Positions 2,597 through 12,314 of a stretch of 16,214 nt of DNA are shown here, in pieces. Within the stretch, counting starts at the first letter, position 1. Every line of letters begins with the position of its first letter. The DNA is from Candidatus Thorarchaeota archaeon (GTDB taxonomy: Archaea; Asgardarchaeota; Thorarchaeia; Thorarchaeales; Thorarchaeaceae). The stretch covers positions 1 to 16,214 of the forward strand of contig PRDI01000036.1 in assembly GCA_003345595.1 (NCBI GenBank). Reading direction: 5' to 3'. The notes beneath the pieces are model-generated. The model searched no databases. It saw nothing but the letters and a program-made list of their open reading frames with translations, and had not been told where the DNA came from. The translations under genes and the position numbers were made by a program.

Positions 2597-3949
2597 ATGC
2601 TACCTGCACATCCACTCGAACAGCGGGTGGGTATGGAGTTCTATTGCACCGATTCGCCCGGACTCGGAGGAAGACTCAGAGAGAGGTTTGAAGACTTCAT
2701 CGTTGAAGAGATAACACCCGAAGGGTCCGTCCTATCATTAGGGGACTGGTCCAGTGAACCAGTTTCAGAAGCACAACTGGCTGCTTCCGTGACAGGTGAA
2801 CGCTCCAAGTACGTCAAGTTCACACTTCAAAAGATGGGGCTCTCCACGCTTGACGCCGCGGGCATCATTTCCGCTGCTCTGAAAATCCCGCGATACTTGG
2901 TCACCTACGCTGGTCTGAAGGATAAGCGCGCCATGACAGTGCAAGCGATGTCAGTGTCAAGACAGGCGTCTGTAGCACTAGGTGGTCTTCGCCTCTCAAG
3001 AATCGTGCTGAGAGATTTGGAGTATGTTCGGCGTCCTGTACAAGTGGGCGACCTGTGGGGCAATCGTTTCACTCTGTTGTTGAAGAACATGACAGTTGAC
3101 TGCAACGCAGGGTGTGAGATGGTAGAGTCGTTCAAGGGGCGCTCGATATTGAACTACTTCGGCATACAACGTTTCGGTGTGACCCAGCCCTCCACACTCT
3201 TGGCTGGAAAGGCGCTCATAAAGAGGGACTACGAAAGCGCGGTCCGACGGATAGTCGCAGCAGCAAGCATCTCTGAAGAAGATACGCCCACCAACGTAGG
3301 TGAAGGGTCGAGTCCAGACACAGAGATCACGGAGAGCATGCTTGATCGGGTCTCTACCGGCGCAAGATATGAACGAAGCGTCATACAACATCTCATCAAA
3401 CACCCGGGCGACTACCAGAAAGCAATGACCAGAATTCCGCCACGCATTCTTACGCTTCTGGTCCATTCATATCAGAGCTACCTGTTCAATCGACTCCTTA
3501 GTGAGCGCGTGAGGTCCGGTTCCTCAATAGACCAGCCGGAGATTGGGGATTTCATAATCCAGCTGGACGAGACGCACTCAGGACGAGACTCATGGCTGTA
3601 TACAACTGAGAGGACTCTTGAGGAACGGCGGACAATGGTACGTTCAGGTCGCTATGGTCTCGCAGCGCCGGTACCCGGATACTCCACAAAGCTGCCACCA
3701 TCAAGGCAATCAGACTACCTCAGAAGTATACTAAGTGCTGAGGGTGTGGCTCTTGTCGACTTCAGGAACCCAGAGTCGAGAGCGCTGGACTCGCCCGGTG
3801 GTCTTCATCTTGTTTCAATGGAGCCTTCGAATCTCTGTGCAGAATGCACAGAAAACAGTCTCAGACTACAGTTCAGCCTCAGAAAGGGCTCATATGCCAC
3901 TGTCTTTCTCCGCGAGCTGATGAAGGGTGATCCCAGGGACTTAATCTAG
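2597..3949 (+). CDS. truD: tRNA pseudouridine(13) synthase TruD
   Basis: EDFIVEE, YAGLKDKRAMTVQ (catalytic Asp), GDLWGNRF, NYFGIQRFG, LRKGSYATVFLRELMK; pth2-truD tandem is a common archaeal arrangement. Confidence 0.95.
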   Translation: MLPAHPLEQRVGMEFYCTDSPGLGGRLRERFEDFIVEEITPEGSVLSLGDWSSEPVSEAQLAASVTGERSKYVKFTLQKMGLSTLDAAGIISAALKIPRYLVTYAGLKDKRAMTVQAMSVSRQASVALGGLRLSRIVLRDLEYVRRPVQVGDLWGNRFTLLLKNMTVDCNAGCEMVESFKGRSILNYFGIQRFGVTQPSTLLAGKALIKRDYESAVRRIVAAASISEEDTPTNVGEGSSPDTEITESMLDRVSTGARYERSVIQHLIKHPGDYQKAMTRIPPRILTLLVHSYQSYLFNRLLSERVRSGSSIDQPEIGDFIIQLDETHSGRDSWLYTTERTLEERRTMVRSGRYGLAAPVPGYSTKLPPSRQSDYLRSILSAEGVALVDFRNPESRALDSPGGLHLVSMEPSNLCAECTENSLRLQFSLRKGSYATVFLRELMKGDPRDLI

Positions 3950-4530
3950 CGTTTCGGCTGCTTCTGCGTGAAGCTCTTCATCCTTTCCTCGAAAACATCG
4001 GATGGTTTCTCCTCTGTCTTCTTGGTTTCCTCCTGATACTGGAAAAGTACCGACTCTCCGACTGCTGCTGACGCGATTAGTCTGAGCTCTTCAAGAGAGT
4101 ATGGAATCCTAGACTTGTCTTCCGATCGGAGTACGACTATGTTCTCTCTTGTTCTGTCGGGCAGGAAGAGACTGTTGACGCCAAGCTCGACCGCGGGATG
4201 TATCAGTTCTTTTACTACGCTGCGCAGGCTTAGTGGGCCCTCGATTATGAGGACTCTTCCAAATGCCTTGCCCATCTCGTCCATGAGTTCCTTCTCAGAC
4301 AGTAGAAGGTCTCTCCCCTTCTTCTTGACAATCAGGACGAGTCTGTCTGCCACACGCAGCGCCCGCAAAAGACTGAGGTCCCCGATGGCTGGGAACTGTT
4401 TCTGACGTTCCAAGAGCCATTTGCAGAAGTCTACATCGAACTGTGTGATCTCACCCTTGTCCAGCTTCTCTTGACAACTGGGGCAGAGCATATCAGACTC
4501 AACATCGAATACACAAACCGGCAGACGCAT
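3946..4530 (-). CDS. Archaeal NusA-like transcription factor paralogue (NusA2 type, N-terminal Cys cluster plus KH-like domains)
   Basis: N-terminus MRLPVCVFDVESDMLCPSCQEKLDKGEITQFDV and later ELIHPAVELGVNSLFLPD resemble the archaeal NusA-like family. Confidence 0.8.
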   Translation of the reverse strand: MRLPVCVFDVESDMLCPSCQEKLDKGEITQFDVDFCKWLLERQKQFPAIGDLSLLRALRVADRLVLIVKKKGRDLLLSEKELMDEMGKAFGRVLIIEGPLSLRSVVKELIHPAVELGVNSLFLPDRTRENIVVLRSEDKSRIPYSLEELRLIASAAVGESVLFQYQEETKKTEEKPSDVFEERMKSFTQKQPKR

Positions 4531-7058: not shown

Positions 7059-7075
7059 TGGTGGGCAGGAGGGGA

Positions 7076-7106
7076 TTTTCTACGCACAGGGTGGTCCTGC
7101 GCTGTT
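7076..7106 (-). other. tRNA intron 2 (31 nt) at position 59/60 (T-loop), relaxed bulge-helix-bulge
   Basis: T-stem as outer helix; central TTCG/AGAA (3 Watson-Crick pairs plus G-A); bulges AG^A and AA^T; inner AC/GT then GCGCAGG/CCTGTGC stem. Removal restores a 7-nt T-loop; the junction could be 58/59 instead. Confidence 0.82.
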
Positions 7107-7121
7107 CTCGAACCCCCGACA

Positions 7122-7153
7122 TAGGCGGGCAGACGCATCGCAGGCAGCTGCCA
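7122..7153 (-). other. tRNA intron 1 (32 nt) at position 44/45, strict bulge-helix-bulge
   Basis: AC/GT outer helix; GGCG/CGCC 4-bp central helix; 3-nt bulges GA^T and TA^T; GGCAG/CTGCC inner helix. Removal restores a 5-nt variable loop ATGTC. Confidence 0.88.
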
Positions 7154-7224
7154 TCCGCCGTGTGAAGGCGGTATCATAACCGGACTAGATCACCTGCCCT
7201 TGGCCCGCAGGTCTGTCTGCTGTG

Positions 7225-7232
7225 TATTTAAG
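7225..7232 (-). promoter_or_regulatory. TATA box of tRNA-Val
   Basis: CTTAAATA 26-33 bp upstream of the first tRNA base. Confidence 0.65.
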
Positions 7233-7685
7233 AATGATGGCGGGGTGATGAGGGATCTTGAGTGGGGTATCTCTTTGACACACGATCCATGTCTTCCCAC
7301 TTGAAACCTAGGGTTTCCATCGCAGATGTCATGGGCAAGCTTCTCGTTCGATGTGGGTTCGTGATAGTCTGCCATCGACTTGGCACATCTCCGTCCCCGT
7401 TCCGCCTCTAATCTTCCATCCCGAACCTTGGACTCAAGACATTGATGCATGACGCTGGCTCTCGGGAGCAGGTGGTGTCAATGGCTAGATAACGCCATGC
7501 GGACGTTTGCCATGACCGCAATACACGGCGACCCAAGTCATGATCGTATAGACAAGTATGACAAATGCAAGGCCAACGTCCATGGGCAGACATGTATTGG
7601 AGTTTCAGTGTCAGAATGCTGGAAACTGCAAAAGGATAGATAGTGCTTCCTATTGCATGGTTTAGTTCCACGCATCACAGGGAAA

Positions 7686-7844
7686 CTATTTCTTCCCACG
7701 CCTCTTGGGCCTGAGGTCGTCCGACTTGCACTTCCTGCACTTCTTGGCCTTGAGGGGGTTGGTTGCACCGCAGTAGCGGCACACAGACTTGTACAGCAAA
7801 TAGTGCTGAGCCAGCCTGCGCTTCTCGATGTCAGATATGGGCAT
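7686..7844 (-). CDS. rpl40e: 50S ribosomal protein L40e
   Basis: Manual translation (52 aa, below ORF cutoff): MPISDIEKRRLAQHYLLYKSVCRYCGATNPLKAKKCRKCKSDDLRPKRRGKK; CxxC...CRKC zinc finger and LRPK signature. Confidence 0.95.
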   Translation of the reverse strand: MPISDIEKRRLAQHYLLYKSVCRYCGATNPLKAKKCRKCKSDDLRPKRRGKK

Positions 7845-7918
7845 GTCAAGGTCCTCATTAAGTGCTTGACGGACTAGGGTTTCCCGTGAGCCCGCTCAGG
7901 CTTCGGAGCGTGGTTGTG

Positions 7919-7926
7919 TTTTAAAA
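7919..7926 (-). promoter_or_regulatory. Candidate TATA box for rpl40e
   Basis: TTTTAAAA about 75 bp upstream of the ATG, just after the sucD stop. Confidence 0.4.
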
Positions 7927-7946
7927 GTTATGCTCCAAACACAGCA

Positions 7947-10043: not shown

Positions 10044-12314
10044 TTAGCTGCTCTCCGTGAGCATAGCTGTCAGTTCGCTCTGCAGTCGAAAGATCTCCTT
10101 GTGCAATCCGTTTCGTTTGTCCGCTGCCAAGAGCCTGAGAAGAATGGAGTTCACATAGTGTAGCTCCTCAAGAATGTTCTCAACTATGCCTGGCATGTCT
10201 TTTTCGCTCCGTATTGCCTGCTCGATGCTGTCTGCCGGAACTGAGTCGATGACCCGTTTGACCAAGTCCTCTGGTAGGTCTGTCCTAGCCACGGTCACAC
10301 CCACAAGAAGGTCTCTCACTCTGCCACTCCCTCTTGCGACTGCTTTCATCACCTTCTTGGCGTCTCGAACGGGCACTCCAAGAACTGCCACGCTGGCACC
10401 CAGATCGGTGCATCTGACGGCCTTTCCGTCGCGTATGATCAGGTCGTCATGCTCCATATCATCAAGCACCCGGAGACCGCGTAGAGCCTGCCCTATCACG
10501 GATGCTGCATATGGTCTGGTTTCCTCACTCTTGAGTGCGAATGAACAGAACTTGACTAGATGCTTGCAGAGCCTGTGGTTCCTTATTCCTTGATACTTCC
10601 AAGACTCACAGGAACATGACACTCCCTCGGCCGGCCTGAGTGTCACGTAGTGCCATAGCTCTCTTGTGCCGCTATGAATGAGTCCCTCAATTTTGAAGGG
10701 AGTGACTGACACAAATTTCACTCTTGAATCGGATATCTCGTCGGCGCGCTTGACCGTAGACCTAGTGGTACGAAGAGAGATGATATCACTGACGGCAGAA
10801 TCATCAAGGGAAACCATTGATTCGTGGGTGATCCCCTTAGCCCGGTTTGTTGCTGCCCAGTATGTGCGGCTGATGATTGCATACGGGTCATCCGTTACTG
10901 CACTCCTTCCACACAGCTGGCTGATGACCAAGTCCTGGATGTTCTCGGGATCGTCCATGCAGCTGTCTACTTCCCCGAGCCTCGGACTGATATTACCATC
11001 TCTGTCTTTGGTGAAGAACTTGTCCAAGACTCGCGTACGTTCTGACTCCTTGTCAACAACGACAATCGCGAAAGCCTCATTGTCAACCCCTGCCCTGCCT
11101 GCTGACTGCAAGACGTCATTAAGCTGCCACTCAGAAAGCATAGTCAGGTCCTCGGTTCCGACGACGTCTTTGCTGACATCTTTCATGAACACCCCGACCA
11201 GAAACACCACAGTCGCCTTGATACCACTGGCGATCGCGAATCTTGTGGGCATGACAACTACCGGCAGAAGCCCCTCCTCCCATGCAGACGACACTTCCCT
11301 TCTTTGGGCTCTGGAAACTCCTTCGTGCAGAAAGGCGACACCTCTCAGGACAGCACTTGCAAGGCGAGAGGTCACTTCGCATTTTGAATACTTGTCCCGC
11401 ACTTGGTTTGAGAGAATCCTGAGGTCATCTTGATGAGAGGGTGTCAATCTGAGGTCAAGGGGTGAGGGCCTGTCCACTCCGGACGTTCCTGTCAAATGAG
11501 CTGCTAATTCCTCGCAAGAAGCTATGTCAGGACACAGTATCACTATCTGTCCGCGACGGTAATGCACGAACTCCGTGATGTCTGCCAACGACTCACGCAC
11601 GCTACTGAATGCCTTCACGCTGAAGATACGCTTCACCTCGGGCTTCGTGTCTTCCACAATGTCTGCATGCAGCCAGAGGCTCAAGTCCTTGAGATCTGCA
11701 ACAGGCGGGCATGTGGCTATGTACTGTGTCCCTTGACCGTGACCCATTAGATTCACAAGCGTCGTTTCAAGTGTCGCGCCAATACCTGGCTGCCCAATCA
11801 AGTCGAGACGCTCGATGATGATACATTGGAGGCCTTCCAGCAACTCAGGATGAACTCTCAGCGCTATGTCAAGGGAACCATAGGTTCCAACCACGACACG
11901 CCCGCTCTTCCACTCCTGACTTATGGCAGTACGCCTACGTATGGCCTCAGCTCCCTCAACCCCAAGCCGTCTGCACTTCTGTATCAAAGAGGAGTATCTC
12001 TTTTCAGCCTGGTGTGCATTTGGACAGAGAACCAACGCTCTAGCCTTGTAGTCAGTTAGAAGCCTGTTCAGAGCTGCAATCTCTGCTATCTGATACGCCT
12101 CATCATAATCATATGTGACAAGCAGCTGGCTTGCGCCTCTGAGCACGCCCTTCTCCAATGTAGCAGTCTGAAATCCTGACAGTTTGACAAGACCTTGTTT
12201 CCTGAGAAGCTCCAGCAGACGCGGCGAAGTTTGCTCAAGCTCGAGCTCTCTCAAAGTACTCAATTGGTCTAAGCCCCAAGCGGTCAGATGCGCGAGGAGA
12301 TGAGAAGTTATCAT
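10044..12314 (-). CDS. Hel308/Ski2-like SF2 helicase homologue with degenerate ATPase motifs and an inserted SWIM zinc finger (probable pseudo-helicase)
   Basis: Q-motif-like GLVKLSGFQ; VVVGTYGSLD (Ib); GVAFLHEGVS; QSAGRAG (VI-like); CTDLG winged-helix end. Walker A position reads TYDYDEAY and Walker B reads IIIERLD. SWIM motif CSC-x12-CKH. TTG 12263 is an alternative start. Confidence 0.8.
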   Translation of the reverse strand: MITSHLLAHLTAWGLDQLSTLRELELEQTSPRLLELLRKQGLVKLSGFQTATLEKGVLRGASQLLVTYDYDEAYQIAEIAALNRLLTDYKARALVLCPNAHQAEKRYSSLIQKCRRLGVEGAEAIRRRTAISQEWKSGRVVVGTYGSLDIALRVHPELLEGLQCIIIERLDLIGQPGIGATLETTLVNLMGHGQGTQYIATCPPVADLKDLSLWLHADIVEDTKPEVKRIFSVKAFSSVRESLADITEFVHYRRGQIVILCPDIASCEELAAHLTGTSGVDRPSPLDLRLTPSHQDDLRILSNQVRDKYSKCEVTSRLASAVLRGVAFLHEGVSRAQRREVSSAWEEGLLPVVVMPTRFAIASGIKATVVFLVGVFMKDVSKDVVGTEDLTMLSEWQLNDVLQSAGRAGVDNEAFAIVVVDKESERTRVLDKFFTKDRDGNISPRLGEVDSCMDDPENIQDLVISQLCGRSAVTDDPYAIISRTYWAATNRAKGITHESMVSLDDSAVSDIISLRTTRSTVKRADEISDSRVKFVSVTPFKIEGLIHSGTRELWHYVTLRPAEGVSCSCESWKYQGIRNHRLCKHLVKFCSFALKSEETRPYAASVIGQALRGLRVLDDMEHDDLIIRDGKAVRCTDLGASVAVLGVPVRDAKKVMKAVARGSGRVRDLLVGVTVARTDLPEDLVKRVIDSVPADSIEQAIRSEKDMPGIVENILEELHYVNSILLRLLAADKRNGLHKEIFRLQSELTAMLTESS

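Follow-up and report, generated by a model that had tools for sequence, protein, structure and literature searches.

Helicases of the Hel308/HELQ type take part in recombination control from archaea to humans, and the C-terminal cassette of Brr2, which is Hel308-like and inactive, is retained as a non-catalytic platform for regulation or interaction. The BCDX2 complex of paralogues is a binding partner of HELQ (PMC13623763), and the arch of Mtr4/Ski2 is inserted in the winged-helix (WH) domain (PMC10946056). SWIM zinc fingers, the signature of which consists of a CxC and a CxH pair separated by a short spacer (n usually 6-16; PMC5727457), are known from protein assemblies: Shu2 uses its SWIM domain as part of the surface that meets Shu1, a minimal Rad51 paralogue (PMC5727457), and for ZSWIM8 the SWIM domain has been named the 'central organizer' around which a protein superdomain is built (PMC13083262). 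The word SWIM is absent both from a 2024 survey of archaeal Ski2-like helicases (PMC10946056) and from a 2026 review of HELQ/Hel308 (PMC13623763), and nothing relevant was found in the literature on SWIM with Hel308, Asgard or archaeal helicases. The gene considered here lies in a stretch of 16,214 nucleotides from Candidatus Thorarchaeota archaeon (contig PRDI01000036.1; the whole stretch is called the window below). Its longest open reading frame (ORF), P0001, encodes a full-length protein of Hel308 fold with the ATP site gone and a SWIM zinc finger inserted in the WH domain, an arrangement already proposed in a preliminary description of this DNA.

SWIM insert and ATP-site motifs of P0001

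According to the alignment with canonical Hel308, about 115 extra residues split helix 3 of the P0001 WH domain. The preliminary description had located its zinc finger between the segments SRTYWA and LDDMEHDDLI..CTDLG, and the insert is indeed found there, the two segments representing the halves of helix 3 together with the wing. The beta-rich stretch KIEGLIHSGTRELWHYVTL (residues 541-559, nt 10638-10694) is followed by CSCESWKYQGIRNHRLCKH, which contains C567, C569, C583, and H585, so that the described succession of a beta-rich segment and a Cys/His motif is present as well. As for the formula given for that motif (CxC-x12-CxH at 10560-10616), the coordinates are correct; the spacer, however, has 13 residues, a length inside the usual SWIM range, and the gene lies on the minus strand. 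Conservation of the four ligands had been set beforehand as one point on which the claim could fail, and they are kept in every orthologue and relative examined. All four are invariant in 22 Thorarchaeota orthologues and 20 distant relatives, and they are the sole invariant columns among 27 insert sequences from 17 GTDB families. The Pfam SWIM model (PF04434) scores 16.6 bits on P0001 (E 0.0057), which is below its cut-off of 19.6, and is the only match in a Pfam scan of the whole protein. The same model matches 7 of the 20 relatives at E <= 0.01, with the best E equal to 2e-6.

Modelled alone, the insert reaches a predicted local distance difference test (pLDDT) value of 89.5 and a predicted template modelling (pTM) score of 0.84. 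The model consists of two short helices, four strands, and then three more helices, with the strands at positions 43-78 preceding the latter and the CxH zinc-site helix following the beta-sheet. In an exhaustive VIA structure search of the isolated insert over 48,161 chains (PDB representatives), the top match is ZSWIM8 (9rwz_M; Z 8.0, root-mean-square deviation 3.2 Å, 95 residues, 17% identity), followed by Shu2 from the Shu1:Shu2 complex (6dex_B; Z 4.2, 90 residues). All remaining chains have Z of 3.6 or below, and no Mtr4/Ski2 chain is present among the matches listed. Foldseek with the isolated insert reports nothing at E <= 0.001, ZSWIM8 being at rank 3 with a probability of 0.75. A profile of the insert searched against PDB sequences gives no Shu2/SWS1 and only chance-level matches at E <= 10. 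Thus, the Shu-like SWIM of the preliminary description has a counterpart in fold, where Shu2 takes second place, and none in the profile search of sequences. Regarding the ESM Atlas, the nearest neighbours of the insert model include SWIM-annotated clusters, among them bacterial SNF2-associated SWIM proteins and MULE transposases, and a search of the same resource by language-model features yields no usable match. By motif, conservation, and modelled fold, the P0001 insert is a genuine SWIM module with a predicted zinc site, and it is predicted to form an autonomous domain of about 115 residues.

The model of the entire protein, built with AlphaFold2 (AF2) from 22 orthologues, has lower scores (pLDDT 77.6, pTM 0.74). 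Its best Foldseek matches are Hjm/Hel308 structures 2zj8, 2va8, and 2p6r (E 1e-23 to 2e-20, template modelling score 0.58-0.70), after which come the POLQ helicase domain, Brr2, and Mtr4; the RecA1-RecA2-WH-ratchet fold of Hel308/Hjm is present according to these matches. Residues 10-422 can be aligned to 2va8/2zj2/2p6r by hidden Markov model (HMM) alignment. The NCBIfam equivalog models for Hel308 (including NF040935; COG1204), however, give P0001 77-87 bits, under their cut-offs of 887-1216. The substitutions in the lost motifs (TYDYDEAY, ERLD, CPP, and QSAGRAGV) are common to all 22 Thorarchaeota orthologues, CPP replacing the SAT that Hel308 has in motif III. Within the Walker A remnant D69, Y70, E72, and Y74 are invariant in this set, as are R169 and D171 within the Walker B remnant. 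With Walker A, Walker B, and motif III lost and motif VI shortened, 'pseudo-helicase', the term used for the host in the preliminary description, is a fair one. Helix-hairpin-helix (HhH) domain 5 was not found in P0001, and the C-terminal columns specific to canonical Hel308 are missing in the alignment.

The dead gene was found in 59 of the 61 Thorarchaeia genomes sampled, at an identity of at least 47%. In comparison with a same-genus orthologue (dS 0.41), the ratio of nonsynonymous to synonymous substitution rates (dN/dS) equals 0.069 for the whole gene; the RecA domains have 0.080 and the SWIM module 0.015. In the 22-sequence alignment invariant columns make up 38% of the SWIM module versus 14-15% of the RecA domains. 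Of all 30-residue stretches of the protein, the one beginning at residue 560 is best conserved, and conservation is lowest in the C-terminal ratchet-like domain. The dead copy belongs to the core genes of Thorarchaeia and evolves under strong purifying selection, with the tightest constraint on the SWIM module.

SWIM-bearing Hel308 family and its gene neighbourhoods

In a profile search over 1.84 billion representative sequences, the Thorarchaeota orthologues collapse into one 50% cluster, and the next full-length relatives of P0001 are found at 18-23% identity. SGSGKT, DEIH, and GRAGR are kept together in 12 of 20 distant relatives. The SWIM motif occupies the same place in the relatives, most of which have SGSGKT, DEIH, and QxLGRAGR; it was never seen in canonical Hel308 (TASGKT) among the matches compared. 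In the SWIM-bearing proteins the insert falls after ...TFWxxQ... and before L..L...g.I......T.lG, and all 20 genes taken from a further 16 families of the phylum have the motif. The named sources are all Asgard (Loki, Hel, Baldr, Jord, Odin, Ran, Hod, Hermod, Thor, and 'Promethearchaeota'), this restriction being read solely from the names of the database matches. Precomputed Pfam annotation of more than 100 SWIM-bearing Asgard helicases reports DEAD, Helicase_C, and Helicase_dom4_arc, and never PF04434, which is probably the reason for the insert having escaped notice. Among the Atlas neighbours of P0001 residues 490-615, modules of similar structure are found in archaeal proteins, mostly from Promethearchaeota/Bathyarchaeota, with HD, DUF72 or DUF6582 domains, which suggests mobility of the extended SWIM module among archaeal proteins.

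With canonical Hel308 as the root, a maximum-likelihood tree unites the SWIM-bearing proteins in one clade with a Shimodaira-Hasegawa-like approximate likelihood ratio test (SH-aLRT) support of 100. The dead Thorarchaeota proteins stand apart from the Thorarchaeota active copy and cluster with the partly degenerate proteins Hod P0128, Ran P0131, and Odin P0133/P0142 (SH-aLRT 99), which in this best tree gives an old clade of paralogues. A Thorarchaeota-specific duplication with fast divergence is not rejected by the approximately unbiased (AU) test (p 0.185), and the tree carries a risk of long-branch attraction. Four Ski2-like proteins are encoded in the source genome (Table 1). Judging from the sequences, P0001 owes the insert to an Asgard-wide family of SWIM-bearing Hel308-like helicases with intact catalytic motifs, a family distinct from canonical Hel308 and with a member in the source genome too. 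The 'fusion' of the preliminary description therefore does not hold as a recent event, and the insert appears instead as an old feature of a pan-Asgard helicase family.

As for the degenerate clade, the Odin (L039/L053) and Hod (L048/L054) members keep Walker A (SSGKT/SASGKT) and those from Odin also keep DEFQ, whereas motif VI is lost in both. ATP-site decay therefore looks gradual across this clade. In the Odin and Hod genomes a fully intact SWIM-bearing copy seems to be lacking, the degenerate type being apparently the only one. A local family expansion is seen in two genomes of family f16 (G078 and G088), with 9-10 Hel308-like matches each; two active SWIM-bearing copies (L030 and L031) belong to G088.

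To describe gene neighbourhoods, ORFs of 21 SWIM-Hel308 loci were clustered, 16 of them from catalytically intact relatives and 5 from the degenerate clade, and a RecA/Rad51-family neighbour recurred. RecA/Rad51-family genes lie at most 6.3 kb from the helicase in 10 of the 16 intact-relative loci according to profile searches (the match in L056 is weak, E 3e-4), and every member of the subclade with the Thorarchaeota active copy is among these 10. In five genomes checked, 8 of 22 Rad51-family genes are within about 7 kb of the active SWIM helicase. The values are 2 of 6 within 6 kb in the complete genome G094 and 2 of 3 within about 7 kb in G098. Canonical Hel308 has no Rad51-family gene nearby in 4 of the 5 genomes checked (those with a position listed). 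The source genome has five Rad51-family genes, two on contig C50 and one each on C58, C39, and C75, and on its contig C50 a one-strand series consists of a long RadA paralogue, XPD, a 792-aa protein, the SWIM helicase, a 589-aa protein, two short RecA-like ORFs, and FEN1. Proximity to RadA-type genes is thus a feature of many intact relatives, the active copy of the source genome among them, and does not extend to the window or to the degenerate-clade loci.

Table 1. Coordinates of P0001, its domains and motifs, and the related genes of the source genome (aa, amino acids; positions without a prefix are those of the window)
Feature	Coordinates	Strand	Remarks
ORF P0001, predicted ATP-dead SWIM-bearing Hel308-like protein	10044..12314	(-)	756 aa, longest ORF of the window; dead SWIM-Hel308 copy, contig C36
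RecA1-like domain	11640..12149	(-)	residues ~56-225; AF2 model
Walker A / motif I remnant	12093..12116	(-)	TYDYDEAY vs family PSxSGKT
Walker B / motif II remnant	11802..11813	(-)	ERLD vs family DEIH
RecA2-like domain	10980..11639	(-)	residues ~226-445; AF2 model, Foldseek, HMM alignment
Motif VI, shortened	11085..11108	(-)	QSAGRAGV vs family QxLGRAGRP; second arginine lost
WH domain, N-terminal part	10827..10979	(-)	residues ~446-496, ends ...SRTYWAATNR; canonical Hel308 alignment
Inserted SWIM domain	10479..10826	(-)	residues 497-612; absent from canonical Hel308
SWIM signature CxC-x13-CxH	10560..10616	(-)	predicted zinc ligands C567, C569, C583, H585
WH domain, C-terminal part LDDMEHDDLIIRDGKAVRCTDLG	10365..10478	(-)	residues ~613-650; second half of helix 3 and wing
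Helical C-terminal (ratchet-like) domain	10047..10364	(-)	residues ~651-756; helices in AF2 model
Active SWIM-Hel308 copy P0299	L037:6940-9120	(-)	genome G000; locus L037 covers contig C50, 40200-56300
Long RadA paralogue	C50:55830-56507		C50 cluster
XPD	L037:12383-14347		C50 cluster
Two short RecA-like ORFs	L037:4574-5332 and 2904-3632		C50 cluster
FEN1	L037:1907-2896		C50 cluster
Proteins flanking the active helicase	L037:9143-11521 (792 aa), L037:5223-6992 (589 aa)		no Pfam match
Canonical Hel308 with HhH tail, P0300			contig C49
ASH-Ski2-like protein			contig C82

The longest form of the P0001 ORF opens with an ATG located 17 codons upstream of the conserved N-terminus (window 12261-12314), and this upstream stretch holds stop codons in several relatives. 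Because homologues begin with MSTLRELEL, translation probably starts at the TTG at 12263-12261, and the product would then have 739 aa. In the C-terminal part of the WH domain, residues ~613-650 pair with L..L..g.i...l.aT.lG of canonical Hel308 in the alignment.

Elsewhere in the window, no convincing long ORF was found at 7059-7946, between the L38e-like ORF and sucD. A 194-aa ORF at 3946-4530 (-) has an N-terminal CxxC pair and no Pfam match, and occurs at the same position with 50-58% identity in all Thorarchaeota loci compared.

Possible role of the dead copy

A tentative preference, held with somewhat less than even confidence, goes to P0001 being a passive, non-catalytic adaptor of Hel308 shape, the working surface of which is the SWIM module. 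The Hel308-shaped ring would act as a scaffold, and the zinc-stabilised module would project from the domain that in Mtr4/Ski2 carries the adaptor-binding arch, providing a binding surface that recruits a partner. Most likely this partner would be a protein, by analogy with both SWIM complexes of solved structure; given the precedents of ZSWIM8, Shu2, and HELQ, protein docking is the best-supported mode. As the active sibling shares an operon with RadA/RadB paralogues, XPD, and FEN1, the most plausible pathway would be DNA repair or recombination.

Several observations weigh against this adaptor reading. Beyond the four ligands, the insert has no conserved surface shared with active relatives, and the partners of the dead and active copies may therefore differ. 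The net charge of the SWIM module is +3 to +8 in the degenerate clade (pI, the isoelectric point, of 8.8-10.0) and -4 to +8 in active relatives, and within the source genome it equals +7 for the dead copy versus -4 for the active one. Because of this contrast the two paralogues probably have no partner surface in common. Moreover, a basic module, as seen throughout the degenerate clade, would suit the binding of nucleic acids no less than the docking of proteins, which makes nucleic-acid binding a serious rival. According to the profile search, a RecA-family neighbour is present in none of the five degenerate-clade loci (Thor, Odin, and Hod), and no recombination gene is found near the dead copy within the window. 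Its neighbourhood there is composed of housekeeping and RNA-processing genes, namely sucC/sucD, a PRC-barrel protein, PAC2, Nip7, Nop2, L38e, and an aCPSF-like beta-CASP nuclease, and further Alba, TruD, PTH2, geranylgeranyl reductase, and Pus10, with tRNA pseudouridine synthases among the neighbours. The 16-kb block in which the dead gene lies recurs with the same gene order in 11 other Thorarchaeota genomes and is missing from a sister family. Being conserved only as a whole block within one family, it carries no functional signal, and synteny was thus rejected as functional evidence for the dead gene.

Among the alternatives, the SWIM insert may be a nucleic-acid-binding extension of the WH domain, with the dead protein binding, clamping or annealing DNA or RNA independently of ATP; this is possible, if rather doubtful. 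In addition to the basic charge found throughout the degenerate clade, it is favoured by the conserved aromatic and basic residues around the zinc site (K541, R551, W554, H555, W572, K573, and R581), by the description of the Hel308 WH domain as one that recognises the substrate and of Hel308/HELQ as alternating between translocation and annealing without ATP (PMC13623763), and by SWIM having first been predicted to bind both DNA and proteins, in work cited in PMC5727457. However, SWIM makes protein contacts in both solved assemblies that match the model, HhH domain 5, to which annealing is assigned (PMC13623763), is absent from P0001, and the family-conserved Trp of the GD.E..L....W helix is replaced by Tyr. 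Considerably less probable is docking of a RadA paralogue by the SWIM module in the way Shu2 docks Shu1, which would make the dead helicase a Shu-like or HELQ-like recombination mediator. Such a role agrees with the second place of Shu2 among the structural matches of the insert, with the contact between Shu2 SWIM and the minimal Rad51 paralogue Shu1, and with the binding of BCDX2 by HELQ. Short and long RadA paralogues are also found beside active SWIM-Hel308 (10 of 21 loci), and the proximity of 8 of 22 Rad51-family genes to the SWIM helicase in five genomes, as well as the five such genes of the source genome, points the same way. Nevertheless, the RadA linkage is limited to the active subclade, with none in the window or the five degenerate-clade loci, Z of 4.2 is weak and comes without sequence similarity to Shu2/SWS1, and the dead and active SWIM surfaces differ in charge (+7 versus -4). 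The wider scheme, in which the dead SWIM-Hel308, its active sibling, and the spare Asgard RadA/RadB paralogues form a recombination-mediator network with SWIM docking a minimal RadA paralogue as in Shu2, is a shade more speculative still. If true, archaea would have in this network a counterpart of the Shu and HELQ-BCDX2 partnerships of eukaryotes, and possibly their forerunner.

It is improbable that the insert is only an internal structural brace, i.e., a zinc-stabilised organiser of the WH and ratchet domains that has no ligand of its own, in a protein kept for another surface. Although ZSWIM8 SWIM is described as a central organiser in its superdomain and family-wide conservation is limited to the four ligands, many surface-type residues of the module other than the ligands are invariant within Thorarchaeota, the lowest dN/dS of the protein is observed in this module, and its isolated model is a confident one. 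Even less credible is an adaptor on the RNA side, analogous to the Mtr4/Ski2 arch and acting in ribosome biogenesis or RNA processing. The same host domain receives the insertion in both cases, and Nip7, Nop2, L38e, the beta-CASP nuclease, Alba, TruD, and Pus10 are all neighbours of the dead gene. That neighbourhood, however, is kept only as a block within one family, the Odin and Hod clade members have other neighbours (aconitase and ThiN), active siblings sit among DNA-repair genes, and the fold of the insert is SWIM rather than a stalk plus KOW.

The interest of these observations lies in a pan-Asgard branch of Hel308 that carries SWIM, a module partnering Rad51 paralogues in eukaryotes. 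The Thorarchaeota copy would be a natural separation-of-function variant, its motor predicted to be dead and its SWIM module under the strongest constraint, and it is therefore a good handle for learning what is bound by the SWIM insert. Should a RadA paralogue turn out to be the partner, the way in which eukaryotic recombination mediators arose could be tested directly.

Comparison with known systems

In terms of position, an analogue of the insert is the arch of Mtr4/Ski2, an accessory domain in the WH domain of a Ski2-like helicase that serves as a platform for adaptor and substrate binding. The arch, however, is a stalk plus KOW fold, PF13234 in Pfam, on active RNA helicases, whereas P0001 has SWIM, and the similar position implies no homology. 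Homology between the two was considered and rejected, the host domain being the same and the fold different. Regarding the loss of catalysis, the inactive cassette of Brr2 differs from P0001 in being fused in tandem to an active one, in having a Sec63 unit, and in lacking SWIM. A Brr2-like pairing of dead and active copies was considered and found no support. The Odin and Hod genomes seem to hold the degenerate type only.

As for SWIM itself, Shu2/SWS1 and the P0001 insert share the SWIM fold with a CxC..CxH zinc site. Shu2, in contrast, is small and free-standing, has a 59-residue insert between the ligands, and binds Rad51 paralogues, while the P0001 module is embedded in a helicase fold. 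ZSWIM8 is a eukaryotic substrate receptor of cullin-RING ligases, in which SWIM organises a dimeric E3 superdomain, and its context is unrelated to that of P0001. SWIM of the bacterial SNF2-associated and MULE/FAR1 types resembles the Atlas model of the P0001 insert; there, however, it is a terminal module combined with another family of host ATPase, and in P0001 it is an insertion within the WH domain.

Archaeal Hel308/Hjm has the same succession of RecA1, RecA2, winged helix, and helical bundle, with Foldseek values of E 1e-23 and a template modelling score of 0.63-0.68, and its RecA domains can also be aligned to P0001 by sequence. In comparison with it, P0001 is without motifs I-III and HhH domain 5, has a shortened motif VI, and has gained a SWIM module of 115 residues. 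Intact Asgard SWIM-Hel308 proteins keep SGSGKT, DEIH/DEIQ, and GRAGR, whereas P0001 is predicted to be ATP-dead and is encoded elsewhere in the genome. Many of the intact proteins, unlike P0001, are located beside RadA/RadB paralogues, XPD, and FEN1, and the SWIM module of P0299 is acidic while that of P0001 is basic. In architecture, insertion site, and all four ligands, however, intact members such as P0299 are the same as P0001.

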